Shown in pieces: positions 15,413 through 32,686 of a DNA stretch of 64,000 bases. The stretch's first letter is position 1. Each line of letters opens with the position of its first letter. The notes beneath the pieces are model-generated. The model worked only from the letters and a program-made list of their open reading frames with translations, was not told the DNA's origin and made no database searches. The DNA comes from Gammaproteobacteria bacterium (GTDB lineage Bacteria > Pseudomonadota > Gammaproteobacteria > JAJPIJ01): positions 110,431-174,430 of the forward strand of contig JAWLAN010000009.1 of NCBI GenBank assembly GCA_041395385.1. The letters run 5' to 3'. The position numbers and the translations under genes were made by a program.

Positions 15413-16069
15413 ATGGCTGAGAGGGGTTCCCGGCGGGACTGTTGTGGCGTCGCATGGCAGGGCAACCCCGTGCTCGTGCGGCTGTTGGGGCTGTGCCCGC
15501 TGCTCGCGGTTTCCGACCGCTTCGTCACCGGCCTGGCCATCGGCATCCTCTTCGCGCTGACCGTGCTGTGGACCCAGTGGCTGGTCGCCGCGCTGCGCGG
15601 CCTGGTCCCGGTGGCCGTGCGCCTGCCGTGCCAGGCCGTCGTCGCGGCCTGCGGGGTGACCGTGCTGCATACGGCAGTGCAGGCCGGCCTGCCGGCGCTG
15701 TCCGCGGCATTGGGTGTGTACCTGCCCGTGCTGGCCGGCTGCTGCCTCGTCCTGGTGCGTGCCGAGGAGTCCGCGTGGCGGCGGCCGGTTACGGCGGCGG
15801 TCCGCGACGCGGGAGCGCATGCCGTTGCCGTGCTCGTGTTCATGGTGGTGTTCTCCGCTGTCCGGGAAATGCTGGGCCACGGCACGCTGCTGCGGGACCT
15901 CACCTTGATCGTGCCGGACACCGACTGGAGCGGTCTGCGCGTATTGCCCCAGGGGTGGCGGCTGCCAATCGCGGCGATGCCGGCGGGGGCGTTGCTGCTG
16001 CTCGGCGCCGCGCTTGCGCTTCGCAACCACACCGCCGCAGGGCGCGACGGCCCGGCCGTGCGCCCATGA
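15413..16069 (+). CDS. rnfE: Rnf/Rsx electron transport complex subunit E
   Basis: NPVLVRLLGLCPLLAVSDRFVTGLAIG matches the RnfE/RsxE signature. Stop overlaps the nth start (ATGA). Confidence 0.75.
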   Translation: MAERGSRRDCCGVAWQGNPVLVRLLGLCPLLAVSDRFVTGLAIGILFALTVLWTQWLVAALRGLVPVAVRLPCQAVVAACGVTVLHTAVQAGLPALSAALGVYLPVLAGCCLVLVRAEESAWRRPVTAAVRDAGAHAVAVLVFMVVFSAVREMLGHGTLLRDLTLIVPDTDWSGLRVLPQGWRLPIAAMPAGALLLLGAALALRNHTAAGRDGPAVRP

Positions 16070-16719
16070 ATGCGGCCAAGCGCGCGGCCATCTTCGAGAG
16101 ATTGCGCTCGGCGAATCCCGCGCCGCGCACCGAGCTCGCCTATTCGACCCCCTTTGAGCTGCTCCTCGCCGTGATCCTCTCGGCACAGGCCACCGACGTG
16201 AGCGTCAACAAGGCCACCTCCAGGCTATTCAAGGTCGCCAACACGCCCGCTGCCATGCTCGCGCTCGGCGTGGAGGCGCTGAAGGAGCACATCAAGGCCA
16301 TAGGGCTTTACAACGCGAAGGCTGCGAACATCATCCGGACCTGCGAGATACTGCTGCGCGCTCACGGCGGCGAGGTACCGTCCGACCGCGAGGCCCTGGA
16401 GAAGCTGCCGGGTGTGGGGCGCAAGACGGCCAACGTCATCCTCAACACCGCGTTCGGCCAGCCGACCATCGCCGTGGACACGCACATCTTCCGGGTCGCC
16501 AACCGCACCGGGATCGCGCCGGGTCGCAATGTGCTGGAGGTGGAACGGCGGCTGCTCAGGCTCGTTCCCGCGGCCTACCGCCAGGATGCGCATCACTGGC
16601 TCATCCTGCATGGCCGCTACGTCTGCACGGCGCGCCGGCCGCGTTGCGCCAGCTGCCTTATCGGCGACCTCTGCGAATGGCCGGCGCGCATGAGACAGAC
16701 GGCCGGGGCGGAGGCCTGA
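16066..16719 (+). CDS. nth: endonuclease III
   Basis: HhH-GPD motif (LPGVGRKTANVIL) and the C-terminal 4Fe-4S Cys cluster (CTARRPRCASCLIGDLC). Confidence 0.9.
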   Translation: MNAAKRAAIFERLRSANPAPRTELAYSTPFELLLAVILSAQATDVSVNKATSRLFKVANTPAAMLALGVEALKEHIKAIGLYNAKAANIIRTCEILLRAHGGEVPSDREALEKLPGVGRKTANVILNTAFGQPTIAVDTHIFRVANRTGIAPGRNVLEVERRLLRLVPAAYRQDAHHWLILHGRYVCTARRPRCASCLIGDLCEWPARMRQTAGAEA

Positions 16720-16722
16720 GCC

Positions 16723-17154
16723 ATGTTCGTGCACGACAGGGATGCTGCCCGGCGCATGTTCGTCGAGGCCTGGCGCAAGCGCCAGGCCGGGGAGGTGCTG
16801 GAACCGATCGAGGCCCTGATCGCCGATGTCGTCGCCCTGCACCCGGAGTACCAGGGGCTGCTGACCTCCGGGGAGGCGTCGGTCGCGCAGGAGTACACCC
16901 CCGAGCACGGCGTGGCCAACCCCTTCCTGCACATGGGCATGCATATTGCGTTGCGCGAGCAGGTGAGCACCGACCGGCCCGCCGGCATCGCCGGCCTCTA
17001 CCGGCGGGCGGTCGAGCGGCGCGGCGACCCGCATGCCGTGGAGCATGACATGATGGAATGCCTGGGCGAGGCCCTGTGGCGGGCGCAGCGCGACAACGCG
17101 GTGCCCGACGAAGCCGCCTACATGGAGTGCCTGAACCGACGATTGTCGCGATGA
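16723..17154 (+). CDS. DUF1841 family protein
   Basis: 143 aa with the DUF1841 pattern (MFVHDRDAARRMFVEAWRKRQAGEVLEPIEALIADVVALHPEY...). Confidence 0.7.
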   Translation: MFVHDRDAARRMFVEAWRKRQAGEVLEPIEALIADVVALHPEYQGLLTSGEASVAQEYTPEHGVANPFLHMGMHIALREQVSTDRPAGIAGLYRRAVERRGDPHAVEHDMMECLGEALWRAQRDNAVPDEAAYMECLNRRLSR

Positions 17155-18434
17155 ATCTCCCCGTCGATCCCGACCGGACCGTGCCGCGCCAGGAGCGTGC
17201 CATCGAGCGGCAGGTGCGCGTGCTGGCCGAGGCCATACAGGAGTTCGCCACGTCGCTGAACCTGCAGGAGACGCTGCGCAGCGCCATCGCGACCTTCATC
17301 GAACAGATGAACGCCGATGCCGGTTCGATCTTCCTGCTCGAGAGCGACAATACCGAGCTGGTCTGCCAACAGTGCGCCGGTCCGGTGGACATCACCGGGC
17401 TGCGCATTCCCGCGGGCGAGGGCATTGTCGGGCGCACGGTGGCGGAGCGCCGCACGCAGATCGTCCGCAACGCGCAGGACGAATCGCAGTTCAACCCCGC
17501 CATAGACGCCGGCACCGGCTTTCTCACCCGCTCGATACTCTGCGCGCCGCTGGTCGTGCGCGGGCAGAGCATCGGCGCGCTGGAGCTCATCAACAAACGC
17601 ACCGCCGACGGCCAGTTCGAGGAGGAGGACAGGCACCTGGCGACCGCGCTCGCCTCGGCGGCGGCGCTCGCCATCCACAACGCCCGGATGGTTGCAAGGC
17701 TGGTCGACCAGGAGCGCGTGCGCAAGGAGCTGGAGCTGGTGCGCGAGGTGCAGGTAAACCTGCTGCCCAGCCCGACGCACCTGGAGCAGCTTCCGGTCGT
17801 CGCCATCAACATACCGGCGCGGGAGGTCTCGGGCGACTTCTACGACTATTTCGCGCTGGGGAGCTCTCGGGTCTACTTCAACATCGCCGACGTGTCCGGC
17901 AAGGGCATGAACACCGCGCTGTGGATGGCGAAGACGACCGGCCTGCTGCACTGCCTGGCCAAGACCACCGACGATCTCGGCCGTCTGCTCAGCCGCGTCA
18001 ACCAGGAGCTCTGCGAGACCTCCTCGCACGGGATGTTCGTCACCGTGGTCACCGGCTTCATCGACCTGCAGCGCGACGAGATCGTGCTGGCCAACGCCGG
18101 CCATCTGCCGGCGATGTATCGCGGTTCCGACGGCGTGTTCCGCGAGCTGCCCGCGGACGGGCCGCCGCTCGGCGTGGTGCCCGAGGCCGAGTTTCGCTGT
18201 ACCCGCTTCCCGCTCGCCGGCGGCAGCCTGTACATTTACACGGACGGCGTGACCGAATCGCCGGACGACCGCGGTCAGATCCTCGGCGCTGCCGGGCTCC
18301 GGGAGCTCATCGATTCGGTGGCTTCGTTGGCTCCGCGTGCCCGCCTCGAGGGGATGGTGGCGACCCTGCGCCGCAGGGGCCATCGCCAGCGCGACGACAT
18401 TACGCTGATGCTGATTGAACGGGACCTTCGATGA
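17151..18434 (+). CDS. GAF domain-containing PP2C (SpoIIE/RsbU-like) serine phosphatase
   Basis: Start at MNLPVDP, overlapping the DUF1841 stop (ATGA). N-terminal GAF domain; C-terminal PPM motifs (REVSGDFYDY; ADVSGKGMNTA; TDGVTES). Confidence 0.75.
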   Translation: MNLPVDPDRTVPRQERAIERQVRVLAEAIQEFATSLNLQETLRSAIATFIEQMNADAGSIFLLESDNTELVCQQCAGPVDITGLRIPAGEGIVGRTVAERRTQIVRNAQDESQFNPAIDAGTGFLTRSILCAPLVVRGQSIGALELINKRTADGQFEEEDRHLATALASAAALAIHNARMVARLVDQERVRKELELVREVQVNLLPSPTHLEQLPVVAINIPAREVSGDFYDYFALGSSRVYFNIADVSGKGMNTALWMAKTTGLLHCLAKTTDDLGRLLSRVNQELCETSSHGMFVTVVTGFIDLQRDEIVLANAGHLPAMYRGSDGVFRELPADGPPLGVVPEAEFRCTRFPLAGGSLYIYTDGVTESPDDRGQILGAAGLRELIDSVASLAPRARLEGMVATLRRRGHRQRDDITLMLIERDLR

Positions 18435-18847
18435 CCGGACAGCGCCTCCTGAAGGTCAAGTTCCCGGCCGACCCGCGCATACTGCGCAAGGTGCGCGAGC
18501 ACGTGCGCGAGGCCTGCGAGCGCGGCGGCTGCTGCGAGCAGGTCGTCAGCCAGATCGTGCTCGCCGTCAACGAGGCCTGCAGCAACATCATTCGCCACGC
18601 CTACAAGGGCAGCGGCGCAGGTGAAATCATCCTCGAAATCTTCAATAATGGCCGGGAACTGGAGTTTCATCTGCGGGACTTCGCCGAGCCCGTGGATCTC
18701 ACCTCGATAGGTCCGCGCGATCCGCGCGAGATTAAGCCCGGTGGTCTTGGAACGCTGTTTATCCGTGAGATCATGGATGAGTGCGCTTATGGTCACGTGC
18801 AGGGCAAGGCCGGGAATTTCCTGCACATGAAGAAGCGCATCGCCTGA
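18431..18847 (+). CDS. RsbW/SpoIIAB-like anti-sigma factor serine kinase (HATPase_c)
   Basis: 138 aa with N-box (VLAVNEACSNIIRHAY) and G-box (GGLGTLFIREIMDE). Start overlaps the phosphatase stop. Confidence 0.7.
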   Translation: MTGQRLLKVKFPADPRILRKVREHVREACERGGCCEQVVSQIVLAVNEACSNIIRHAYKGSGAGEIILEIFNNGRELEFHLRDFAEPVDLTSIGPRDPREIKPGGLGTLFIREIMDECAYGHVQGKAGNFLHMKKRIA

Positions 18848-18896
18848 TGGCGGCAGGCAGGTCATTTCCGGCTGAGTGCGGCGGGAGAGCGTTGAG

Positions 18897-19229
18897 ATGA
18901 GCTATGCGGTGCGCGATGACAGTGGCTATGCGGTCGTTGAGCTGACCGGCGACGTGGACTTGTCCGCCTCGCCGGAGGCGCGCTCCGCCATACTCGGCTG
19001 CCTGGCGCAGGCGCGAAACGTCCTGGTGGATCTGTCTCGCGTCACCTACATAGACAGCTCCGGCGTGGCGAGCCTGGTCGAGGGCTACCAGACGGCGAAG
19101 AAGAAAAAGCTGCGGTTCGGCCTGATCGGCGTGAGCGAGGCCGCGCTGAGCGTGCTGAAGCTGGCGCGTCTGGACAAGGTCTTTCCCATCCATGCGACGA
19201 TCAACGAACGCATCCGGGCGGATGGCTGA
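18897..19229 (+). CDS. STAS domain anti-sigma-factor antagonist (RsbV/SpoIIAA-like)
   Basis: MSYAVRDDSGYAVVELTGDVDLSAS...VTYIDSSGVASLVEG carries the phosphorylatable DSSG motif. gggagag SD 8 nt upstream of the ATG at 18897. Confidence 0.7.
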   Translation: MSYAVRDDSGYAVVELTGDVDLSASPEARSAILGCLAQARNVLVDLSRVTYIDSSGVASLVEGYQTAKKKKLRFGLIGVSEAALSVLKLARLDKVFPIHATINERIRADG

Positions 19230-20034
19230 CGCGGCCGGGCAATCCTCGGCGGTCCCCATCGAGCACCTCGGACGGGCCGCGGTCGCCGCCGTCGAGGAGT
19301 TCGGCTACTACTTCCTGCTCTGGCTCGAGAGCCTGTACTGGCTGCTGTTCGGCTGGATGAAGAAGCAGCCGGTTCGAATCTCGGCGATGGCCGCGCAGAT
19401 GGTGACCATCGGCATCGCCGCCACGCCCATCGTCACCATCCTCGCGTTCACCATCGGCGTGATGCTCGCCATCCAGGGCATCGCGACGCTGGAGACCTTC
19501 GGCGCCGAGGAGCAGGTCGTGATGGGCATCGCGCTGTCGGTCACGCGCGAGTTCGCCGCACTGATCACCGCGATCGTGGTCGCCGGCCGCTCCGGTTCGG
19601 CGCTCGCCGCGCGCATCGGCACCATGCAGGTCTCCCAGGAGATCGATGCGCTGCGGGTCATGAGCATCAACCCGGTCCGCTACCTCGCCGCTCCGGTGCT
19701 CGCGGCCATGATGGTGATGGTGCCGGCGCTGACCCTCATCGCCGACTTCGCCGCCCTGCTCGGCGGGGCGGTGTTCACCAATCTCGAGCTGGGCCTGTCT
19801 TACTCCGCCTACCTCGACCGCACGCTGAGCTCGCTGGTTTTCGATGACGTGCGGCAGGGGCTGATAAAGAGCCTGGTCTTCGCCACGATCATCACGGTGA
19901 TCGGGGTGAGCAACGGCTTCCAGGTCACCGGCGGTGCCGAGGGGGTCGGGCGCGCCACCACGCGCGCGGTGGTGTTGTCGATCTCCTATATCGTGGTGGC
20001 GGACATGTTGTTCACCTACTTCCTGAACCGCTGA
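19222..20034 (+). CDS. MlaE-family ABC transporter permease
   Basis: About 270 aa permease with the MlaE/YrbE topology. Start ATG overlaps the STAS stop by 8 nt. Confidence 0.75.
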   Translation: MADAAGQSSAVPIEHLGRAAVAAVEEFGYYFLLWLESLYWLLFGWMKKQPVRISAMAAQMVTIGIAATPIVTILAFTIGVMLAIQGIATLETFGAEEQVVMGIALSVTREFAALITAIVVAGRSGSALAARIGTMQVSQEIDALRVMSINPVRYLAAPVLAAMMVMVPALTLIADFAALLGGAVFTNLELGLSYSAYLDRTLSSLVFDDVRQGLIKSLVFATIITVIGVSNGFQVTGGAEGVGRATTRAVVLSISYIVVADMLFTYFLNR

Positions 20035-20040
20035 GTCGCC

Positions 20041-20841
20041 GTGACCCGGACCGAGACCCAGCCCGTCATCGAGGTCAGCGCGCTGACCGCCCATTACGGT
20101 TCGCGCAAGATCCTCGAGGGCATCGACTTCCACGTCGAGCCCGGGGAGATCCGCATCATCATGGGGGGCAGCGGCTCGGGCAAGAGCACGCTGCTGCGCC
20201 ATCTGCTCGGGCTCAACCTGCCCACCAGCGGCAGGGTCCGACTCCTCGGCGTCGACGTCGCCGGCGCCTCCGCCACGGAGCTGCACGAGCTGCGCAGGAA
20301 TATCGGCGTGGCCTTCCAGGGCGGGGCACTGTTCAGCTCGATGACCGTCGGCGAGAACATCAAGCTGCCGCTGCGGGAGCACGCGCGCCTCGACGAGACC
20401 ACCATGGACATCATGGTGCGCCTGAAGCTCGAGGTGGTGAACCTCGCCGGCTTCGAGCACCTGATGCCCGCGCAGCTCTCCGGCGGCATGATCAAGCGCG
20501 CCGCCGTGGCCAGGGCGGTCATCATGGACCCGAAATTGCTGTTCTTCGACGAACCCTCCGCCGGCCTGGATCCGGTCGTCTCGGCGGAGCTCGACGAGAT
20601 GATCCTGCGGCTGCGCGAGGCGATGAACATGAGCATCGTCGTGGTGACCCACGAGCTGGAGAGCGCCTTCAAGATCGCCGATCGCATCACCGTGCTCGAC
20701 CACGGCCGCATCCTCATGACCGGCACCGTCGCGGAGGTCCAGAGCTGCCCGCATCCGCGGGTCCAGGACCTGCTCAACCGCAGACCGCGCCGCTCGGAGG
20801 TCAACGCGGAGGACTACCTGCGGCGACTGACCGGCGGCTGA
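20041..20841 (+). CDS. ABC transporter ATP-binding protein (MlaF-like)
   Basis: Walker A GGSGSGKST, signature LSGGMIKR, Walker B LLFFDEPSAGLD. GTG start 6 nt after the permease stop. Confidence 0.8.
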   Translation: MTRTETQPVIEVSALTAHYGSRKILEGIDFHVEPGEIRIIMGGSGSGKSTLLRHLLGLNLPTSGRVRLLGVDVAGASATELHELRRNIGVAFQGGALFSSMTVGENIKLPLREHARLDETTMDIMVRLKLEVVNLAGFEHLMPAQLSGGMIKRAAVARAVIMDPKLLFFDEPSAGLDPVVSAELDEMILRLREAMNMSIVVVTHELESAFKIADRITVLDHGRILMTGTVAEVQSCPHPRVQDLLNRRPRRSEVNAEDYLRRLTGG

Positions 20842-20920
20842 CGCGCGAAATCACATGAGACGCGGTGGCCGTGGCGTGCGCGCCGCGGACGATCGCGACA
20901 GAGGGGGTTGGGGGAAAGGC

Positions 20921-21946
20921 ATGCGGCGCGACAACATCAATTACCTGGCGGTGGGCGTGTTCGTCCTGGCCGTCGGCGTGGCGTTCCTGTGGGTGCTATA
21001 CCGGCTCACCGGCAGCACCGGACCGACGGATCGCTACTACGCCATATTCGACAGCGTCGGCGGCATCAAGTACGGGACCGTGACCTACTACAAGGGCTAT
21101 CCCGTCGGCCAGGTCGAGTCGGTGCAGCCCGTGGTCACCGACAGCAGGGTCAATTATCGCGTCGAGTTCAGCGTCACCAAGGACTGGAAGATGCCGGTCG
21201 GGAGCGCCGCGGCCATCATGCTGCCGGGCCCCCTGGCGCCGGCGGTGATCGACATCCACGAGGGCAAAGGACCGGGCTGGATGAAGCCCGGCGATGAGCT
21301 CGACGGTGTGGAGCAGGCGGACATGTTCTCCGCGCTCAACGAGGCGGCGGCGGAATTCAAGAAGCTCACCAGCGAGGGACAGCCGCTGCTGCAGAGTCTC
21401 AACGACCGGATCACCGCGCTGAGCATCGAGTACGAGTCGCTGTCGAAGGAGCAGCTGCGGCCGCTGCTCGCCAGCCTGCGCCAGCGGGTGGACGATCCGG
21501 AGCTGTTCGACGAGCTCAAGAAGGTGGTCAAGAAGCTCGACGCCAGCGCCGAGGCGCTGCTGCAGACCGTCAACGCCGAGAACCGTCAGCATATCTCCTC
21601 CATCCTGACCAACGCCGACAAGGGTTCGGCGCAGCTGACCGAGCTGATGGGCCGCATAGAGGAGTCCCGCAAGCAGATGCACGAGCTGTTTCTCGCCATG
21701 GACGCGCTGGTCAGGGAGAACAGGGAGGGTATCAACCGGACCGTGGGCGACGCCTCGGTCACGATGCGGGAATTGCGCGGCAGCATCGAGGTGGTGGCAG
21801 ACAACATCGATGCGATCGTGCATTATCTGGAAGGCAGCGGCCGCAACATGCAGGAGTTCAGCCGCGAGGTGCGCGAGAACCCGAGCGTGCTCTTCCGCGG
21901 CGAGTCGACGCAGGACCCGCTGCCGGCCGGGAATAACAACAATTGA
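20921..21946 (+). CDS. MlaD/MCE domain protein
   Basis: N-terminal TM helix (NYLAVGVFVLAVGVAFLWVLY), then an MCE domain and a long coiled-coil tail. gggggaaagg SD. Confidence 0.7.
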   Translation: MRRDNINYLAVGVFVLAVGVAFLWVLYRLTGSTGPTDRYYAIFDSVGGIKYGTVTYYKGYPVGQVESVQPVVTDSRVNYRVEFSVTKDWKMPVGSAAAIMLPGPLAPAVIDIHEGKGPGWMKPGDELDGVEQADMFSALNEAAAEFKKLTSEGQPLLQSLNDRITALSIEYESLSKEQLRPLLASLRQRVDDPELFDELKKVVKKLDASAEALLQTVNAENRQHISSILTNADKGSAQLTELMGRIEESRKQMHELFLAMDALVRENREGINRTVGDASVTMRELRGSIEVVADNIDAIVHYLEGSGRNMQEFSREVRENPSVLFRGESTQDPLPAGNNNN

Positions 21947-21954
21947 GGAACTGG

Positions 21955-22587
21955 ATGATCGCTTCCGCACGGGCCATCTTGCCCATGCTGCTGGTGGCCG
22001 GAATGCTCGGCGGCTGCGGGCGCGGCGCGCCGATCCCCACCGACACGTACTATCGCCTGGCGGCGCCGCATATCGACGCCGAAGCCGGAGCGCCGCTCGC
22101 CGACGGCGGCATACTCGTGGAGGCATTCGAGGCCGATGCCCTTTACCGGGAGCGGCCGCTGCTTTTCAGCGAGGACGCGGCCAACCTGACGCTGAAGCAG
22201 TACCATCATCACCATTGGCAGGAATCCCCGCCGCGGCTGCTACGCGAGCAGCTCGTCCTGTACCTGCGCGCCGCCCACGCCGCGCCGTGGGTTGCCGGCC
22301 GCGCCGATCAGGCGCCGGCGATGGTCGTACGCGGACGCATCCGGCGCTTCGAGCACATCATCGGCGCGGATGCGGTGACCGCGCGTGTCGCCCTGGAGCT
22401 GCAACTGCGGGGGCAGGACGGAGAGATGCTGATGCTGCGCGACTATCAGCGTGACGAGCCGGCCGCGGGCAAGGACGTGGCCAGCGTGGTGGCGGCGACG
22501 GACGCCGCCCTGAACTCGGTGTTCGAGCAGTTTCTCGCCGACGCGCGCGCCGCCGTGCGCGCGCCCGCGACCGGCCGGTTGCCGTGA
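21955..22587 (+). CDS. ABC-type transport auxiliary lipoprotein (PqiC/DUF330-like)
   Basis: Lipobox LGGCG followed by the TDTYYRL motif typical of PqiC-family lipoproteins of Mce systems. gaggaa SD; 8 nt after the mlaD-like stop. Confidence 0.6.
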   Translation: MIASARAILPMLLVAGMLGGCGRGAPIPTDTYYRLAAPHIDAEAGAPLADGGILVEAFEADALYRERPLLFSEDAANLTLKQYHHHHWQESPPRLLREQLVLYLRAAHAAPWVAGRADQAPAMVVRGRIRRFEHIIGADAVTARVALELQLRGQDGEMLMLRDYQRDEPAAGKDVASVVAATDAALNSVFEQFLADARAAVRAPATGRLP

Positions 22588-24836
22588 AGGAATTCCTCGC
22601 CAAGTTCAGGCGGCACCGCGTGCGCATCATCGCGAGCCTCGCCACGCTCGCCATATTCCTGCTGCACGCGCGCGACGAGGAGGGCGGCCGCTTCCGCTGG
22701 GGCCTGATCGACAAGCTGGAGCACGTCGCCTACGACGCCCGCCTCGCTCTCAGCATGCCGCGCACGGTGGACCCGCGCATCGTCATCATCGACATCGACG
22801 AGAAGAGCCTCGCCGTGGAGGGGCGGTGGCCATGGCCGCGACAGCGGATCGCGGCGATGCTCGAGCAGCTGTTCGAGAAATACCGGGCGCGGCTGGTCGC
22901 CTTCGACGTGGTCTTCGCGGAGCCGGACCAGAGCTCCGGACTGCACGTGCTGGAGGGCCTCGCCGAAGGGGAGCTCAAGACCGTGCCGGAGTTCGGACAG
23001 ACCCTTGCCCGCCTGCGGCCGTCGCTGGACGGCGATGCCGTGCTTGCCGAGACGATGAAGAAGTACCCGGTGGTGCTCGGCTACTTCTTCAACGAGGCCA
23101 ATCCGGCGCGCTCCGGCGCCCTGCCGCCGCCGACCTTCGTGAAGGGCAGCTTCCCCGGCAAGCGCGTCGACTTCCTGAAGGCGGTGGGCTACGGCGGCAA
23201 TCTCGAACAACTGGTGAAGGTTGCCGCGGGAGCCGGGCACTTCAACCCCTCGCTCGACGTCGACGGGGTGGTCCGGCGGGTGCCGATGGTGTTCTCCTTC
23301 GAGGATGCGCAGTACGAGGCGCTCTCGCTCGCGGTCGCGCGGCAGTATCTCGCGGTGAAGGAGGTGCGGGCGGAGTTCGAGCCGGTGCCCGCGATGGCGC
23401 GGCGCAATTATTCGGGGCTGGAGTGGTTGCAGGTCGGCAAGGGGCGCATACCGGTCGACGAGTATGTGCAGGCGCTGGTGCCCTACCGTGGCGCGCAGGG
23501 CAGCTTTCCGTACGTCTCGGCCACCGACGTCATCACCGGCAAGGCCGATCCCGGCGTGCTGAAGGAGGGCGTGATCGTGCTGGTCGGAACGACCGCCGCG
23601 GGTCTGCTGGACATGCGGACCACGCCGGTGCAGCGCGCCTATCCCGGCGTGGAGATCCACGCGAACCTGGTCGCCGGCATACTCGACGGGAAGCTCATGC
23701 AGCGACCCGCCTACGTGCGCGGGCTGGAGTTCATCCTGCTGCTGCTGTTCGGAATCGTGTTCGCCCTGGCGCTGCCGGCGCTCAGCCCCCTGGCGGCCAC
23801 GCTCACGGCCGCCGGCATGCTGGCCGCCTACGTCGGCCTGAACCTGGTGTTCTGGCAGGTCGGCAAGATGGTCGTGCCGGTCGCCACCGGCATCTTCACC
23901 ATGCTGGCCATGTTCCTGTTGAACATGTCGTACGGCTACTTCATCGAGACGCGCGGCAAGCGCCAGCTGACGAGCCTCTTCGGACAGTACGTGCCGCCGG
24001 AGCTCGTCGACGAAATGGCCCGCGATCCGGAGAAATATTCGCTGGAGGCGGAATCCCGCGAGATGACGGTGCTGTTCTCCGACGTCCGCGGCTTCACCTC
24101 GATCTCCGAGGGGCTCGAGCCGAGGCAGCTCTCGGAGCTCATGAACCAGCTGCTCACGCCCATGACGCAGGTGATCCATCTGCAGCGCGGCACGATCGAC
24201 AAGTACATGGGCGACGCGATCATGGCCTTCTGGGGGGCCCCCGTGCCCGACCCCAACCACGCCGCCAACGCCGTCACCGCGGCGCTGCAGATGATGGCCA
24301 AGCTCGGGGAGATCAACGCCTCGTTCCGGCAGCGGCGCTGGCCGGAGATCCACATCGGCGTGGGCATCAACACCGGGACGATGAACGTCGGCAACATGGG
24401 CTCGGAGTTCCGCATGGCGTACACCGTGCTCGGCGACGCGGTGAACCTGGGGTCGCGCCTGGAAGGCCTGACCAAGGGCTACGGCGTGGGCATCATCGTC
24501 AGCGAGAGCACCGCAAAGGGTGCGCCGCAGTTCGCCTATCGCGAGCTGGACGTGGTGCGGGTGAAGGGCAAGGACAGGCCGGTGGCCATCTACGAGCCGC
24601 TGGGACCCCTCAGCAGCATGGACGCGCGCATGCGCGATGAGATCAAGCTGTATCGCCAGGCGCTGAAATACTACCGCGCGCAGGAATGGGACATGGCCGA
24701 GCTGCAGTTTCTCAACCTGGCGAAGTCCTCCTCCTCGCCGCAGCTGTACTCGATGTACGCGGAGCGGGTGGCGCACTTCCGTCGCGAGCCGCCGCCGGCC
24801 AACTGGGACGGCGTCTTCACCCACACCAGCAAGTAG
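22584..24836 (+). CDS. CHASE2 sensor domain-containing class III adenylate/guanylate cyclase
   Basis: N-terminal CHASE2 (RWPWPRQRIAAML...), TM helices, C-terminal CYCc (MTVLFSDVRGFTSISEGL...GDAIMAFWGAP). GTG start overlaps the lipoprotein stop (GTGA). Confidence 0.8.
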   Translation: MKEFLAKFRRHRVRIIASLATLAIFLLHARDEEGGRFRWGLIDKLEHVAYDARLALSMPRTVDPRIVIIDIDEKSLAVEGRWPWPRQRIAAMLEQLFEKYRARLVAFDVVFAEPDQSSGLHVLEGLAEGELKTVPEFGQTLARLRPSLDGDAVLAETMKKYPVVLGYFFNEANPARSGALPPPTFVKGSFPGKRVDFLKAVGYGGNLEQLVKVAAGAGHFNPSLDVDGVVRRVPMVFSFEDAQYEALSLAVARQYLAVKEVRAEFEPVPAMARRNYSGLEWLQVGKGRIPVDEYVQALVPYRGAQGSFPYVSATDVITGKADPGVLKEGVIVLVGTTAAGLLDMRTTPVQRAYPGVEIHANLVAGILDGKLMQRPAYVRGLEFILLLLFGIVFALALPALSPLAATLTAAGMLAAYVGLNLVFWQVGKMVVPVATGIFTMLAMFLLNMSYGYFIETRGKRQLTSLFGQYVPPELVDEMARDPEKYSLEAESREMTVLFSDVRGFTSISEGLEPRQLSELMNQLLTPMTQVIHLQRGTIDKYMGDAIMAFWGAPVPDPNHAANAVTAALQMMAKLGEINASFRQRRWPEIHIGVGINTGTMNVGNMGSEFRMAYTVLGDAVNLGSRLEGLTKGYGVGIIVSESTAKGAPQFAYRELDVVRVKGKDRPVAIYEPLGPLSSMDARMRDEIKLYRQALKYYRAQEWDMAELQFLNLAKSSSSPQLYSMYAERVAHFRREPPPANWDGVFTHTSK

Positions 24837-24884: not shown

Positions 24885-24912
24885 AAGGCCCGATGCGTGC
24901 GCGCCGGGCCTT
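24885..24912. terminator. bidirectional rho-independent terminator between convergent cyclase and FHA genes
   Basis: aaggcccg...cgggcctt 8-bp stem. A-tract on one side and T-rich run (ttttcgtttgt on the minus strand) on the other. Confidence 0.55.
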
Positions 24913-24945
24913 CTGTCGTGATCGTCGCGGGCGAGGGGGCGCCGT

Positions 24946-25683
24946 TCAGCGCGTCAGGGTGAACTCCATCTTGATGCCGGCCAGCTCCACGATGTCGCCG
25001 TTGCCCAGGCCGTAGGCCTGCGGACCGATCGGATTGCCGTTGACGATGGGGTAGTTGGTGCCGCCGCCGTCGCTCTCGATGTGGGTCAGGAAATAGCCCT
25101 GAGGCCGGCGGGAGATGACGGCAACCTGCACCCCCGGCTTGCCGAGCGTGATGAGCGCCTTGGTGAGTTCGAGTTCCCGGCCGGCGATGGGGCCGTTCAG
25201 CACGCGCAGCTTGCCGAGCGGCATGCCGGAGCTCGCGACCGCGGGCGCCACGCTCTCGCTCAGGTTGGGCGGGCGTTGCGGGTGCGCCGGCGCGACCCCG
25301 GCGGCAGCGGCGGCCTGCACGCTGGCCGCGGCGGCGCTGGCCGTGCCCGGGCGGATGATCATGGTCTTCTCGAAGTCCTCGTCATGCGCCGTGGCATGCT
25401 CGTTGACGTACTTCAGCTCGTGCTTGCCGATGGCGATTACGTCGCCGTCGCGCAGCGCGTGCTTCTTGATCAGCTTGCCGTTGACGTAGGTCCCGTTGGT
25501 GCTGCCCAGGTCTTCCAGGAAGGAGTCGTCGAGGATGGTGATGATGAGGGCGTGCTTGCCGCTGACAGCGAGATTGTCGATCTGGATGTCGTTGTCAGGC
25601 TTACGGCCTATCGTCGTCCGTTCCTTGGTGAGCGTGAATTCGCGCTGGACGGCACCGTTCAAACTGAGGATCAATTTAGCCAT
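24946..25683 (-). CDS. FHA domain-containing protein (two FHA domains, Ala-rich linker)
   Basis: N-terminal FHA (TIGRKPDNDIQIDNLAVSGKHA...GSTNGTYVNG) and a second C-terminal FHA-like domain. Confidence 0.75.
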   Translation of the reverse strand: MAKLILSLNGAVQREFTLTKERTTIGRKPDNDIQIDNLAVSGKHALIITILDDSFLEDLGSTNGTYVNGKLIKKHALRDGDVIAIGKHELKYVNEHATAHDEDFEKTMIIRPGTASAAAASVQAAAAAGVAPAHPQRPPNLSESVAPAVASSGMPLGKLRVLNGPIAGRELELTKALITLGKPGVQVAVISRRPQGYFLTHIESDGGGTNYPIVNGNPIGPQAYGLGNGDIVELAGIKMEFTLTR

Positions 25684-25697
25684 AGGCCCCTATCCCG

Positions 25698-26531
25698 TTA
25701 TCGCCCTTTCTTTATCCGACCCAAGACATTGTTATACCAGCTCGTTTTGGCCGGAAAGGCACTCAAGACACGTGCCAAGATCACGGACACGTTGTCCTTC
25801 CCCCCGTTCGCATTGGCGATGCGAACCAGTTCGCTACCCGCTTTTTCAAGATTAGCACTAAATTTTCTGAGGGTTAAGCGAATATCTTCATCAGACATCA
25901 TATCATTTAACCCATCCGAGCAAAGCAGGTAGACGTCCCCCGGCAGGGCCGGCTCCTCCTTGATGTCCACCTCGACGTTCTCCTCCACGCCCAGGGCGCG
26001 CGTAACGAGGTTCTTCGGGGTGTTGGCCAGCGCCTCTTCCTTTGTCAAAAATCCCCTTGTAACAAGCTCTTGCACCAGGGAATGGTCGCTCGTGACCTGC
26101 TCGAACAGCTCTCCGCGCAGGCGATAAAGCCGGGAATCGCCGACGTGTGCAACGCAAAAACGGTTGTCGTAGAAGAGCACCGCCAGGGCCGTGGTCCCCA
26201 TCCCGTTGCACTGCGATTCGGTATTGGCGGTCTTGTAGATGTGGAGGTTGGCGTCGCGGATGGCCTTGCGCAGCAGGCTCGCGCCGTGGCTCAGCCCGGT
26301 CTCGGCGTCCGGTGCGTAGGCCGGCCGTATGGCCAGGCCCTGCTTGACCTGGTTCACCGTGACGCTCACGGCAATGGCGCTGGCGACCTCGCCGGCCTTG
26401 TAGCCGCCCATGCCGTCGGCCACCATCGCGAAGCCCAGGGCGGTGTCGGTGGCGGTGCTGTCCTCGTTGCGCGTGCGCTTCTGGCCGGGATCCGAGAAAT
26501 TCGCCATCTGCAGCACGCTTGCCAAGCTCAT
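25698..26531 (-). CDS. PP2C-family Ser/Thr protein phosphatase (Stp-like)
   Basis: PPM motifs (RTRNEDS; MVADGMGG; CSDGL). ggggagag SD upstream of the ATG at 26531, 13 nt after the kinase stop. Confidence 0.8.
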   Translation of the reverse strand: MSLASVLQMANFSDPGQKRTRNEDSTATDTALGFAMVADGMGGYKAGEVASAIAVSVTVNQVKQGLAIRPAYAPDAETGLSHGASLLRKAIRDANLHIYKTANTESQCNGMGTTALAVLFYDNRFCVAHVGDSRLYRLRGELFEQVTSDHSLVQELVTRGFLTKEEALANTPKNLVTRALGVEENVEVDIKEEPALPGDVYLLCSDGLNDMMSDEDIRLTLRKFSANLEKAGSELVRIANANGGKDNVSVILARVLSAFPAKTSWYNNVLGRIKKGR

Positions 26532-26544
26532 CTTCTCTCCCCGG

Positions 26545-29091
26545 TCACGAGCTCTTCCTCTGCGCGCAGGCCTGCAGATCGCGCGCGAACTCCCCGCCGG
26601 TCTGATAGCGCTTGGCCAGGTCTTTCTCGAGGGCCTTGTTGATGACGGTCTGCAGGCACGGCTTGGTACGGGCCAGCTCCGGGCGCGCCTCCAGGATGTC
26701 GGTGTGCGGCTCGTTGGCGATCTTGTACATCAGCGTGGCCATGGAGTCGCCGCGGAACGGCAGGCGGCCGCAGAGCAGCTGGTAGAACGTCACCCCGAGC
26801 GAGAACAGGTCGGAGCGGCCGTCGATCTTGCGGCCGGCGAGCTGCTCCGGGGACATGTAGGAGGGGGTGCCGAGCACCATGCCGGTCTTGGTCTTGCTCG
26901 AATCGGTGATGCGCGCGATGCCGAAGTCCGTCAGCTTGATGGCCTTGGCCTGCGGGTCGTACATGATGTTCGCCGGCTTGATGTCGCGGTGCACGACGTG
27001 CTGCCCGTGCGCATAATCCAGTGCCAGCGCCGACTTGTAGATGATGCCCATCACCAGCGGCACCGGCAGCAGCGCGTCCTCCTTGGTGTAGCGGGTGAGG
27101 TCGTGGCCGGTGAGAAACTCCATGGCGATGTAGGCCAGATCGTGCTCCTCGCCGGCATCGTAGATGGTGACGATGTTCGGGTGCTGCAGGCGGCCCGCGG
27201 TCTCGGCCTCGCGGAAGAATCGCTGCTTCACCTCGTCGAGCTCGTCGGCGTCGAACTCCTGGGAGAGCGCCAGGGTCTTGATGGCCACCACGCGGTTGAT
27301 CTTCGGGTCGCGCCCCAGGTAGACGATGCCCATGGCGCCCTTGCCGAGCTCCTTCTCGACCTGGTAGCGGCCGAGCATCGGCTTCTGCAGCGAGCCGTCC
27401 TCCAGCAGCAGCGTTCCGCCCGGGTGCGGGTTGGCGCCGCCCAGGAGGATGGTGTCCTCCATCTGCTTGGAGCGCGTCATGCGCGTCTCCAGATCGCGGA
27501 ACTTCGGATCGTGGCCCGACATGTACTGGTAGACGGAGTAGGCCTTGGCGAACTGCCGCTTGCGCTCGAAGTCCAGCGCCAGGTTGTAAAGCGGGTCCAT
27601 CATCGAGTCCTCGAGCGGGCACTTGCGGAACTTCTCGAACGCCATGTCGTACTGGCCCTGCTGCTGGAACGCCAGACCGAGCATGCGATTGCTCTCCGCG
27701 GATTCGGTGTCGGCCTTGAGCTTGCCGCGCTCGGTCACCAGGAAGCGCTTGGTGGTCAGCAGCAGGTGCCCGCATACCAGCAGCAGCGCCGCGAGCATCG
27801 TCTGCAGCCAGTTCCCGGACTTCATCGAGAAGAAGCTCAGGGCCAGCAACGCGAGCAGCGCTCCGGCGGTGGCGATCGCGGCGTGACCGGCCTTCAGGCG
27901 CGGCAGCAGATAGGCGAGATACGCGCCGACCAGCAGGAACAGCAGGATCTCCACCCAGATGGCCCAGGCCGGGACCACGAAGAAATTCTCGTTGAGGATG
28001 CTCGCCACGGAGTGCGCGAGGATCAGCACCGGCGGCATCTCCGCCACCGGCGTGTGGAAGGAGTCGCCGACGCCGAATGCGCTGGCGCCGATCAGCACCG
28101 TCTTGCCGGCGTACTTCGAAGCGGGGATCTTGCCGGAGTAGACGTCGTAGAAGGAATCCACCTGGAAGGCCGGCTCGCCGGAGGGCTTGTTCTTGTAGAA
28201 GAACGTGTTCATCCGCGAGATCTGGTCCGTGCGGATCGCGAGCTTGCCCAGGTGCACCGACTCGCCCTTCACCAGCCTGATGTCGCCGCTGCCCAGGTTG
28301 AGCGTGCGGGCCGCGATCGCCAGCGCCATGGACGGGTAGTAACGGTTGTAATAGTTCACCGCCAGCAGATCGGTGCGGATGCCGCCGTCGGCGTCCTGCC
28401 ATTGATTGACGTGGCCGATGGCGCTGGCGCGCGAGCCCAGGCCTTCGATGGGGGTGAAGATCTGGCGGGCCGGGAAGGCGTCGAATCCCTCCACGGCACC
28501 GGAGGAGACATTGGCGTCGTCGATGGCGTTCTGCTCCATGAACGCCGGCGTCGGATTGTCCGGGTTGCCCAGGGGCTCGCCCAGCTCGAAGAGGTTGGCC
28601 ATCACCACGTTGCCGGCCTTCTCGATGGCCGTGGCCAGGTTCTGATCGTAGTCCAGCTCGGTCTTTGCCGCGGCGAGCTCGGTGCCGAGCTCGACTACGG
28701 CCGCGTCGCCGCTGCCCTCCAGCCCGCGTTGCTTGTAGAGATCCAGCAGCCTGTTGATGCGCTCCAGGCCCGGGTCGGCCTGCGGTTCGGTGTACAGCAC
28801 GGTGCTGGCGATGACCTTGGCGCCCGCGGCCGCCAGCATCTCGACCATCTCCGCATGGACCTTGCGGGCCCACGGCCAGCGGCCGATGTTGCTGATGCTG
28901 CTGTCGTCGATGGCGACCACGGCGATCTGGGTGCCGGGGTCGCGCGTGGAGGTGCGCGCCCCGAAGTCGTACGCGGCGCGCTCGATCGTTTCCACCCACG
29001 CCGGACGGTTGCCCATGAGGAACAGGGCAAGAAAGAGCAGCGTGAGGGCCACCCCGGCAAACCAGTCGGTAGTCCAGAACTTCTTGCGCAT
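26545..29091 (-). CDS. CHASE2 sensor domain-containing Ser/Thr protein kinase (Hanks-type) with TPR-like linker
   Basis: N-terminal CHASE2 (GRWPWARKVHAEMV), TM region, C-terminal kinase (GKGAMGIVYLG...VAIK...HRDIKPANIMY...DFGIA...SPE). Confidence 0.85.
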   Translation of the reverse strand: MRKKFWTTDWFAGVALTLLFLALFLMGNRPAWVETIERAAYDFGARTSTRDPGTQIAVVAIDDSSISNIGRWPWARKVHAEMVEMLAAAGAKVIASTVLYTEPQADPGLERINRLLDLYKQRGLEGSGDAAVVELGTELAAAKTELDYDQNLATAIEKAGNVVMANLFELGEPLGNPDNPTPAFMEQNAIDDANVSSGAVEGFDAFPARQIFTPIEGLGSRASAIGHVNQWQDADGGIRTDLLAVNYYNRYYPSMALAIAARTLNLGSGDIRLVKGESVHLGKLAIRTDQISRMNTFFYKNKPSGEPAFQVDSFYDVYSGKIPASKYAGKTVLIGASAFGVGDSFHTPVAEMPPVLILAHSVASILNENFFVVPAWAIWVEILLFLLVGAYLAYLLPRLKAGHAAIATAGALLALLALSFFSMKSGNWLQTMLAALLLVCGHLLLTTKRFLVTERGKLKADTESAESNRMLGLAFQQQGQYDMAFEKFRKCPLEDSMMDPLYNLALDFERKRQFAKAYSVYQYMSGHDPKFRDLETRMTRSKQMEDTILLGGANPHPGGTLLLEDGSLQKPMLGRYQVEKELGKGAMGIVYLGRDPKINRVVAIKTLALSQEFDADELDEVKQRFFREAETAGRLQHPNIVTIYDAGEEHDLAYIAMEFLTGHDLTRYTKEDALLPVPLVMGIIYKSALALDYAHGQHVVHRDIKPANIMYDPQAKAIKLTDFGIARITDSSKTKTGMVLGTPSYMSPEQLAGRKIDGRSDLFSLGVTFYQLLCGRLPFRGDSMATLMYKIANEPHTDILEARPELARTKPCLQTVINKALEKDLAKRYQTGGEFARDLQACAQRKSS

Positions 29092-29240: not shown

Positions 29241-29708
29241 TCAGCCGCCCTGCCCGCACCACTTGTCGGCTTCCTTCTGCGCCGCGGCCTCGGCCTCGGC
29301 GCGCTCCTCCTTGGTCAGGACCCGGTGGTCCTTGCCCTCGCCGTCTTCGTAGAGGTAGCTGGCATTCCGGTACTTCTCCAGCAGGTCCCTGGCCTTCAGG
29401 CAGTTCTCCCGGCGCATCGCCTTCTCCTCGGCGATCCGCGCCTGGGCCTCGGCGTCCTCCGCGCGTTCCTGCTCGAACTGCCTCAGCAGCCGCCGGGTCT
29501 TTTCATCGCGGGCGGCGGCATCTCCATCCGGGGACGGCTCCGCGGCCCGGACCTCGATCTTCTCCGCCGCCGCCGCGTCCGGCCGGTCGCCGTAATGGAC
29601 CTTCCCGTTCGCATCGACCCACTTGTACACGTCGCGCGCGGCCGCCTGCGGCCCCAGCAGCAGGATCGCCATCACCGCGGCAAAGGTCATGCGCAGCGTC
29701 ATCTTCAT
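29241..29708 (-). CDS. DUF4124 domain-containing secreted protein
   Basis: Signal peptide, then DVYKWVDANGKVHYGDRP (DUF4124), then a charged coiled region. Confidence 0.6.
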   Translation of the reverse strand: MKMTLRMTFAAVMAILLLGPQAAARDVYKWVDANGKVHYGDRPDAAAAEKIEVRAAEPSPDGDAAARDEKTRRLLRQFEQERAEDAEAQARIAEEKAMRRENCLKARDLLEKYRNASYLYEDGEGKDHRVLTKEERAEAEAAAQKEADKWCGQGG

Positions 29709-32194: not shown

Positions 32195-32686
32195 CTATTC
32201 GTCAGTCCAGTGACGAAAAGTGGCAGCCTGGCCGACGCGCCTGCCGTCGCGATCGCGCAGATCCCAGATCGTCACGTCGCGGATGCGAAAGCGCCGGCCG
32301 GTGGCGCTGACGCGCACGCCGGAGTAGCCGGTGACGTAGCCCTGCCGGCCGACCTCCTCGAGCACGCGCTGGCGCTCCTGGTGGCAAGCGGCCTCGGCGG
32401 TGTCGCGGGAAGGCGTGCGTACGAAGCGCTCCCACGGCAGCTCCCACAGGGCCAGTGCGGCGCGATTGCCGTAGTTGAGGATGGGCTCGGCGGCGGTGTC
32501 GTGCGAGGCGACCACGAACGGGGCCACGAACAGCCGCTCGGCCTCCTCGAGGGGGTCGCCGCTGCGGGCGATGAGCTCGCCGCCCGTGAGGCGGGCGTGA
32601 CTGTCGAGCAGAACCTGGGTCCAGGGGATGATGACGGTTGGATCGGGCAGATCGATGCGGCCGGAGACGGACATACAGACCGCCAT
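32195..32686 (-). CDS. MEKHLA domain-containing protein
   Basis: 163 aa with the MEKHLA pattern (...FVVASHDTAAEPILNYGNRAALALWELPWERFVRTPSR...SGRRFRIRDVTIWDL...). Confidence 0.7.
   Translation of the reverse strand: MAVCMSVSGRIDLPDPTVIIPWTQVLLDSHARLTGGELIARSGDPLEEAERLFVAPFVVASHDTAAEPILNYGNRAALALWELPWERFVRTPSRDTAEAACHQERQRVLEEVGRQGYVTGYSGVRVSATGRRFRIRDVTIWDLRDRDGRRVGQAATFRHWTDE

Follow-up and report, generated by a model that had tools for sequence, protein, structure and literature searches.

A partner-switching module adjoining genes of an Mla/Mpc-type lipid transporter: a conserved, apparently undescribed arrangement

We analyzed a 64,000-nucleotide (nt) stretch of a Gammaproteobacteria bacterium genome (GenBank assembly GCA_041395385.1, contig JAWLAN010000009.1, positions 110,431 to 174,430; G+C content, ~68%), which is referred to here as the window and in which the genes of a partner-switching module stand directly before those of a lipid ABC transporter. 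Nine plus-strand genes (positions 16723 to 24836) are arranged head to tail and encode, in this order, a DUF1841 protein, a GAF-PP2C sensor phosphatase, a kinase, a STAS protein, MlaE, MlaF, and MlaD homologs, a lipoprotein, and a CHASE2 cyclase (Table 1). An annotation made earlier from the sequence alone (the original prediction) had described a complete RsbU/RsbW/RsbV-type module with a DSSG-bearing STAS protein, a PqiC-like lipoprotein, and a CHASE2 nucleotidyl cyclase, and Pfam searches bore out these assignments (including CHASE2, Guanylate_cyc, and PF03886 matches for the last two proteins). The genes are all codirectional, as had been stated, and every listed junction was read in the sequence. 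The stop codon of the DUF1841 gene overlaps the start of the phosphatase gene (ATGA, 17151 to 17154), as do those of the phosphatase and kinase genes (ATGA, 18431 to 18434). The STAS gene and mlaE overlap by 8 nt in different frames (ATGGCTGA, 19222 to 19229), and this 8-nt overlap is conserved in 12 loci. Six nucleotides separate mlaE from the GTG start of mlaF (20041), 8 nt precede the ATG of the lipoprotein gene (21955), and the lipoprotein and cyclase genes share a GTGA (22584 to 22587). Between the overlapping STAS gene and mlaE, a signal scan detected neither a promoter-like nor a terminator-like site. Given that operons commonly show such overlaps, the evidence exceeding chance comes from the conservation of gene order across ~70 species-level genomes.

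That conservation was assessed in GTDB (one genome per species) by a STAS alignment and motif scan, which returned at least 581 relatives; the best 80 were fetched and examined. The scan patterns included YIDSSG, so that motif conservation among the matches is partly by construction. Locus content was determined by tblastn with the window proteins and by all-against-all clustering of open reading frames (ORFs). In 69 of these best 80 loci, the genes for the sensor-PP2C, the kinase, and the STAS protein were followed directly by MlaE and/or MlaF genes, and two further loci ended right after the STAS gene. The module occurred in Gammaproteobacteria (Thiodiazotropha, Endoriftia, Lysobacterales, Rudaea, and Arenicellales), Betaproteobacteria (Propionivibrio), and Alphaproteobacteria (Rhodospirillales, Pelagibius, Dongia, Ferrovibrio, and Kiloniellaceae). 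No other gene family was broadly conserved around the module in the 80 loci; DUF1841, the endonuclease III gene nth, the cyclase, and a neighboring FHA cluster were confined to the gammaproteobacterial clade of the window. Three metagenomic contigs (STAS proteins 72 to 73% identical to that of the window) had the same order from nth through the CHASE2 cyclase, followed, as in the window, by the convergent cluster of FHA, PP2C, CHASE2-Ser/Thr kinase, and DUF4124 genes. Three look-ups anchored on the ATPase each revealed the full switch upstream, two of them without the cyclase or the FHA cluster. The same gene order, proposed earlier as something to be sought in related genomes, was found, and its conservation strongly supports the predicted functional link between the partner-switching module and an Mla-type transporter. 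As a unit, the predicted operon held in its switch/MlaE-MlaF core and not in its cyclase and DUF1841 genes, which belong to one clade.

A different layout was seen in four Lysobacterales/Rhodanobacteraceae loci (L057, L067, L078, and L082), in which the STAS and MlaE genes are followed by a gene for a DUF481 outer-membrane-type protein in place of MlaF. No match to an ATPase, MCE protein, or lipoprotein was found near these loci (Pfam was run on L057 only).

The transporter had been described as MlaEFD-like. MlaE, MlaF, and MlaD domains were indeed present, but a classical Mla identity was rejected because the operon contains neither MlaA nor MlaC (Pfam) and encodes an MCE protein of the long type together with a PqiC-like lipoprotein. 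The permease scored 215.7 bits against the NCBIfam MlaE family (cut-off, 212.2), and the closest PDB matches of the ATPase were MlaF of Acinetobacter baumannii (7d06; E value, 2e-58) and of Escherichia coli (1e-48). The MCE protein comprises 341 to 363 amino acids (aa), compared with 183 aa for E. coli MlaD; its MlaD domain (residues 58 to 136) is followed by a helical C-terminal part of ~200 aa, the NCBIfam Mce family matches residues 34 to 314, and there is a weak match to the PqiB C terminus. ATG 20921 may be its real start: a strong ribosome-binding site (GGGGGAAAGG) precedes this codon, which fits the orthologue lengths (~336 aa) and would leave 79 nt between mlaF and mlaD. The real start of the lipoprotein gene is ATG 21955, with the ribosome-binding site GAGGAA, and the protein has a signal sequence and the lipobox LGGC.

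Judged by its sequence, the window transporter matches the Mla-Pqi chimeric (Mpc) type, except that its STAS protein is encoded by a separate gene. Mpc was named in 2025 in Brucella abortus (MpcEFDA; Lannoy et al., EMBO J 2025, PMC12436622), where a STAS domain with homology to MlaB forms the N terminus of the MpcE permease; no kinase or phosphatase gene adjoins the Mpc genes, and none is mentioned in that paper. The two systems share a permease, an ATPase, an MCE protein (~330 aa in B. abortus, with a PqiB-like needle), and a PqiC-like lipoprotein in the same order, a STAS module immediately N terminal to the permease, and the lack of MlaA and MlaC. They differ in that the Mpc STAS domain is MlaB-like and fused to the permease, whereas the window STAS protein is separate, RsbV-like, and encoded behind a PP2C phosphatase and a serine kinase. 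In the Sinorhizobium meliloti counterpart, the STAS-MlaE fusion is 379 aa long and the MCE protein 456 aa; an ATPase and an auxiliary lipoprotein are also encoded, and neither a kinase nor a phosphatase gene lies near these genes. Its proteins are 41% (MlaE), 42% (MlaF), and 23% (MCE) identical to those of the window, and its RMDTAGA is aligned to the YIDSSGV of the window STAS protein. The fusion of STAS to the Mpc permease supports the view that a STAS module ahead of the permease is a transporter subunit. The separate STAS gene of the window, which overlaps mlaE, holds the position of the fused Mpc domain, and we count this in favor of an MlaB-like role.

The same switch also precedes canonical Mla operons, in 11 of the 80 loci. 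These operons take two forms: STAS, MlaF, MlaE, a short MlaD (150 aa), MlaA, and MlaC (e.g., L063), or STAS, MlaE, MlaD, MlaA, and MlaC with a convergent MlaF gene (e.g., L081). In all 11 loci, the switch STAS gene was the only STAS ORF within 10 kb on either side according to a STAS-family hidden Markov model, and it was the best and sole significant match to E. coli MlaB. The ATPase of the window was 58% identical to that of L063 and 67% identical to that of L081, and the corresponding values for the permease were 37 and 34%. Identity to the E. coli proteins was 40% (MlaF) and 31% (MlaE) for the window, 43 and 39% for L063, and 37 and 43% for L081. In neighbor-joining trees, which carried no support values, the switch-linked ATPases formed one clade that excluded E. 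coli MlaF and S. meliloti MpcF, and the permeases divided by transporter architecture, S. meliloti MpcE standing next to those of the long type. In the kinase and STAS tree, the canonical type arose at least three times. The ATPase clade and the pattern of identities indicate that the ATPase travels with the STAS module and has been combined with different permease/MCE sets.

The STAS protein probably begins at ATG 18897 and would then have 110 aa, as do its orthologues; the best 120 relatives were 68 to 99% identical and nearly all 110 aa long. The motif YIDSSG occupies residues 51 to 56, with Ser54 as the first serine. An AlphaFold2 model (mean predicted local distance difference test, 90.8) had the SpoIIAA topology, with helix alpha2 beginning at Ser54. 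Foldseek gave TM-scores of 0.8 to 0.87 to RsbV, SpoIIAA, and TM1442 and of ~0.57 to MlaB chains (28 to 29% identity). The protein passed the cut-off of the NCBIfam family ant_ant_sig (68 bits; cut-off, 53) and fell below that of mlaB_1 (26.4 bits; cut-off, 90), placing it outside the MlaB family by this measure, and PDB MlaB chains were matched weakly (E values, 1e-3 to 4e-3). A pairwise alignment with E. coli MlaB showed 37% identity over 49 aa (E value, 6e-8) and placed Ser54 against MlaB Thr52; Ser54 would be the equivalent of both this residue and SpoIIAA Ser58.

Thr52 lies in the middle of the interface between MlaF and MlaB, and the phosphomimetic T52E binds MlaF more weakly; the authors of the MlaFB structure raised phosphoregulation of this threonine as an open possibility, with no kinase known (PMC7367683). 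On the ATPase side, Tyr261, Leu265, and Leu266 of E. coli MlaF insert into a groove between MlaF and MlaB. The C-terminal extension of the window ATPase ends in EDYLRRLTGG, aligned to GDYHADLLPGS of E. coli, and its Tyr and Leu(+4) are conserved across the orthologues. The conserved ATPase tail and the Ser54/Thr52 alignment fit an MlaB-like role. E. coli MlaFEDB (Thong 2016, PMC5016091; Kolich 2020, PMC7367683) thus resembles the window system in its MlaE/MlaF core, its small cytoplasmic STAS protein encoded in the operon, its ATPase extension with a Tyr/Leu motif, and a Ser/Thr residue at the N terminus of alpha2. Unlike the window system, it lacks a kinase and a phosphatase of its own, and MlaB is not known to be phosphorylated; furthermore, MlaB is very divergent from the window STAS protein, and where E. 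coli has MlaC and MlaA, the window encodes a long MCE protein together with a PqiC-like lipoprotein.

Several STAS proteins of other makeup were encountered. Four large membrane proteins (P0137, P0195, P0209, and P0215; 830 to 844 aa) carried a C-terminal STAS domain 45 to 55% identical to the window protein, and P0137 and P0195 weakly matched the Pfam family TLC (ATP/ADP transporter family), which would be another transporter-STAS combination. In P0143 (259 aa), a STAS domain 61% identical to that of the window is joined in frame to a C-terminal part of ~165 aa with no Pfam match, and this protein may have arisen from the operon by deletion or fusion. A seemingly natural fusion of STAS and MlaE (P0197, 281 aa) was discarded because it contained garbled stretches typical of frameshifts; the STAS gene of L067 encodes an ordinary 110-aa protein in the ORF list. 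The only solid STAS-transporter fusion is the published Mpc one.

Both enzymes of the switch look catalytically active from their conserved residues. The PP2C motifs GDFYD, DVSGKG, TDG, and DDIT were kept across 63 orthologues, with the metal-binding Asp motifs present, and the kinase N-box (E/N/H), G1 Asp, and PGGLG were kept across 80 sequences. The sole PDB match of the kinase was RsbW of Bacillus subtilis (6m36; E value, 9e-9). Phosphatase and kinase are fused into one polypeptide (~540 to 600 aa) in 31 of 83 loci (three are listed in Table 1; examples of the fusion were checked with Pfam), an arrangement that suits an enzyme pair dedicated to a single substrate. RsbW-STAS fusions also occur (P0186, 250 aa). 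The sensor domain of the phosphatase is variable, as is typical of the modular input domains of partner-switching systems: GAF in most loci, HDOD in five (L019, L024, L025, L028, and L030), and short or with no family match in others. Phosphatases with a short N-terminal part lacking a family match were those of L032, L046, and L058.

Taken together, the observed gene content, motifs, conserved synteny, and homologies, along with an ATPase that cosegregates with the STAS module, lead us to favor, with somewhat better than even confidence, a reading in which the STAS protein is a phosphorylation-gated equivalent of MlaB that acts on the MlaF-type ATPase of an Mpc-like transporter. The 110-aa protein would be a cytoplasmic subunit of this trans-envelope lipid ABC transporter. 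In its unphosphorylated form, it would bind the helical subdomain and the C-terminal tail of the ATPase and thereby help the transporter to assemble or to work. The RsbW-like kinase would phosphorylate Ser54, releasing the STAS protein and shutting the transporter down, and the GAF-PP2C phosphatase would reverse this modification when a ligand binds its GAF domain.

In the clade of the window, this ligand would probably be cyclic AMP (cAMP), made by the CHASE2 cyclase of the same operon when a cue arises in the envelope or periplasm. The closest PDB matches of the GAF domain all bind cyclic nucleoside monophosphates (cNMPs), namely, Anabaena CyaB2 (1ykd; E value, 2e-19), PDE2A (1mc0; 3.5e-17), PDE5, and PDE10. 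The motifs NK...F...D and TGFxTxSxL are present and conserved, with R rather than E as the last residue of the NKFDE-type motif; the window GAF differs from these proteins in being fused to a PP2C domain instead of a cyclase or phosphodiesterase. The cyclase, with its catalytic domain and a CHASE2 domain flanked by transmembrane segments (Pfam), has a Lys in GTIDKYMGD and a Thr in AYTVLGD; the former motif is aligned to GTIDEFMGD of Cya2 and to GTIDKF of the Cya2 adenylate variant. Lys and Thr at these positions are, we presume from what is known of the class III family, the pattern of adenylate cyclase specificity. The enzyme is accordingly probably an adenylate cyclase, as far as these residues indicate, and an action of its cAMP on the GAF-PP2C phosphatase is plausible in this clade. 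Cyclase genes were near the module in only ~20 loci, sometimes upstream. A full envelope-lipid homeostat, in which a periplasmic CHASE2 sensor would raise cAMP, cAMP would stimulate the GAF-PP2C phosphatase, and the dephosphorylated STAS protein would dock on the ATPase and switch the lipid conduit on, is a tentative extension that we consider possible and still somewhat doubtful.

Several observations weigh against the reading of the STAS protein as a gated transporter subunit. By sequence and fold, the protein is nearer to anti-sigma antagonists than to MlaB. Nine loci, which all belong to the clade of the window and are dispersed over the tree, carry the switch with no Mla genes beside it: the STAS gene is directly followed by the cyclase gene in seven (L014 to L016, L021, L023, L036, and L066) and by the FHA cluster in two (L012 and L027). 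The STAS proteins of these loci are as conserved as elsewhere, and no relocated ATPase was seen in L015, none of the best 120 homologs of the L013 ATPase lying on its 2,756,965-bp contig. The STAS protein may have a further partner in such loci or act in trans. The absence of the cyclase from most loci means that control by cAMP cannot be general, HDOD replaces GAF in five loci, and the trees behind the ATPase clade were those without support values mentioned above. In the nine loci, the four transporter genes seem to be cleanly missing, and in L036 and L066 the PP2C gene is absent as well.

The kinase, rather than the STAS protein, could be the component that acts on the transporter. In this inverted logic, the RsbW-like kinase would bind and inhibit the ATPase or another transporter component, and the unphosphorylated STAS protein would be only a decoy that sequesters the kinase. 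This is the canonical RsbW/SpoIIAB scheme, the top match of the kinase is an RsbV/RsbW complex (6m36), and the conserved synteny with MlaF would be explained equally well. We consider it unlikely, however, since the kinase-phosphatase fusions suit an enzyme pair better than a sequestering factor and the tail motif through which MlaF contacts MlaB has been kept; furthermore, it is the STAS protein, not the kinase, that occupies the MlaB position in the canonical operons and the fused-STAS position in Mpc.

The RsbV/SpoIIAA-like sequence and fold of the STAS protein and the persistence of the switch in the nine loci without Mla genes would also suit a module controlling a sigma factor, or some other regulator of transcription, whose gene lies elsewhere, with the transporter genes as cotranscribed cargo or members of its regulon. 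No sigma factor partner was seen: tblastn with RpoE, FliA, RpoS, and FecI, a search of limited sensitivity for extracytoplasmic function sigma factors, gave no sigma-70 family match in the 64-kb window and matches in 3 of 83 loci, each >6 kb away, and the Sigma70 Pfam family was absent from the three metagenomic contigs and the three ATPase-anchored loci. With the module joined to two MCE transporter types, carrying its own ATPase lineage, and supplying the sole MlaB candidate of the canonical operons, we rate a distant regulator as quite improbable. Least probable in our view is that the main output in the gammaproteobacterial clade is the CHASE2 cyclase and/or the FHA/PP2C/CHASE2-kinase cluster, with the transporter as a secondary or ancestral partner; the direct succession of a highly conserved STAS gene by the cyclase gene or FHA cluster in the nine loci speaks for it, but the Mla linkage is kept outside the clade where both are absent, and four loci that belong to it (L013, L017, L093, and L094) retain the Mla genes and lack the cyclase.

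Partner switching joined to an Mla/Mpc transporter is a conserved arrangement that is apparently undescribed. We found no description of it in the literature searched, which did not cover subscription-only works, and this agrees with the earlier statement that no characterized Mla/Mce system has a STAS partner controlled by a kinase/phosphatase pair; the reviews or analyses consulted on STAS proteins and PPM phosphatases make no mention of Mla or ABC transporters. Compared with the Bacillus modules RsbU-RsbV-RsbW and SpoIIE-SpoIIAA-SpoIIAB, the window module has the same sensor PP2C phosphatase, GHKL serine kinase, STAS D-S-x-G site at the start of alpha2, and modular input domain (GAF, HDOD, or none), but it lacks an associated sigma factor gene, its conserved neighbor is an ABC transporter, and its proposed output is an ATPase subunit. 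STAS switches with nonsigma targets include HsbR-HsbA of Pseudomonas aeruginosa and Rv1364c of Mycobacterium tuberculosis. In SypE-SypA of Vibrio fischeri (PMC10120452), the kinase and PP2C phosphatase, often fused in such systems, likewise serve a single STAS substrate, and the unphosphorylated STAS protein is active on a nonsigma target. The targets of these switches are biofilm, motility, or diguanylate cyclase regulators, and none is known to gate an ABC/MCE lipid transporter.

Posttranslational regulation of Mla/MCE lipid transporters has so far been unknown, and the present locus family offers a dedicated kinase/phosphatase pair genetically tied to a STAS-ATPase pair. Because the family covers both classical Mla and Mpc architectures, phosphoregulation is directly testable in it. 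If the gated-subunit reading is true, an ABC transporter would join the few known outputs of partner switching other than sigma factors; if the homeostat is also true, no earlier ABC transporter would have been gated by a partner-switching phosphorelay and a second messenger, and the family would be the natural system in which to learn whether STAS subunits of the MlaB type are phosphoregulated. The arrangement suggests that outer membrane lipid trafficking may be tunable by second messengers and envelope sensors, which bears on envelope stress, antibiotic tolerance, and the physiology of symbionts and pathogens.

The tight gene string had been predicted to run from DUF1841 to the cyclase. Its dense packing was confirmed, but its start was not, as rnfE and nth precede the DUF1841 gene with gaps of 2 to 3 nt (rnfE/nth and nth/DUF1841). 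This upstream neighborhood is kept in the gammaproteobacterial clade, and transcripts of an rnf-nth operon may run on into the module. At the other end, the GC-rich hairpin after the cyclase gene is the probable end of the operon; its fold z-score (-0.65) makes it no more stable than shuffled sequence, and the terminator scan made no call there. No tRNA genes and no Rfam families at the gathering threshold were found in the whole window. Two CHASE2 sensors stand tail to tail across this junction, one on the cyclase and the other on the Hanks-type kinase of the convergent cluster. Farther along, a stand-alone MEKHLA-domain protein is encoded between an ABC exporter gene and mutS.

TABLE 1 Features of the window and examples from related loci (positions are those of the sequence named in the second column)
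Feature	Sequence	Position	Strand	Evidence or remark
rnfE	Window	15413-16069	+	Pfam Rnf-Nqr, E 2e-33; upstream of DUF1841
Endonuclease III gene nth	Window	16072-16719	+	HhH-GPD and EndIII_4Fe-2S; directly before DUF1841
DUF1841 protein	Window	16723-17154	+	Pfam PF08897, E 3e-55; clade specific
GAF + SpoIIE/PP2C sensor phosphatase	Window	17151-18434	+	Pfam, E 1e-17 (GAF) and 2.8e-41 (SpoIIE)
RsbW/SpoIIAB-like GHKL serine kinase	Window	18431-18847	+	Pfam HATPase_c_2, E 8.4e-26
STAS protein, 110 aa	Window	18897-19229 (ORF 18876-19229)	+	Pfam STAS, E 6e-17
MlaE/MpcE-like permease	Window	19222-20034	+	Pfam MlaE, E 1e-68
MlaF-like ABC ATPase	Window	20041-20841 (start GTG 20041)	+	Pfam; PDB matches
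MpcD-like long single-MCE protein	Window	20855-21946 (alternative start ATG 20921)	+	Pfam MlaD
PqiC/MpcA-like outer membrane lipoprotein (ABC_trans_aux)	Window	21955-22587	+	Pfam PF03886, E 7e-11
CHASE2 + class III nucleotidyl cyclase	Window	22584-24836	+	Pfam CHASE2, E 6e-60; Guanylate_cyc, E 1e-22; last gene; clade specific
GC-rich hairpin, then UUCUGUCGU	Window	24885-24919	+	Between convergent genes, after the cyclase gene
FHA protein	Window	24946-25683	-	Pfam; convergent neighbor cluster
PP2C	Window	25698-26531	-	Pfam; convergent neighbor cluster
CHASE2-Ser/Thr kinase, 848 aa	Window	26545-29091	-	Pfam; convergent neighbor cluster
DUF4124 protein	Window	29241-29708	-	Pfam; convergent neighbor cluster
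MEKHLA-domain protein	Window	32195-32686	-	Pfam, E 1e-51
PP2C-kinase fusion	L001	8267-9940		GAF-PP2C and RsbW-like kinase in one polypeptide
PP2C-kinase fusion	L057	7865-9799		GAF-PP2C and RsbW-like kinase in one polypeptide
PP2C-kinase fusion	L081	8257-10011		GAF-PP2C and RsbW-like kinase in one polypeptide
HDOD-PP2C phosphatase	L019	7814-9508		
HDOD-PP2C phosphatase	L025	7895-9577		
HDOD-PP2C phosphatase	L030	1042-2754		
DUF481 outer-membrane-type protein	L057	10405-11988		In place of MlaF

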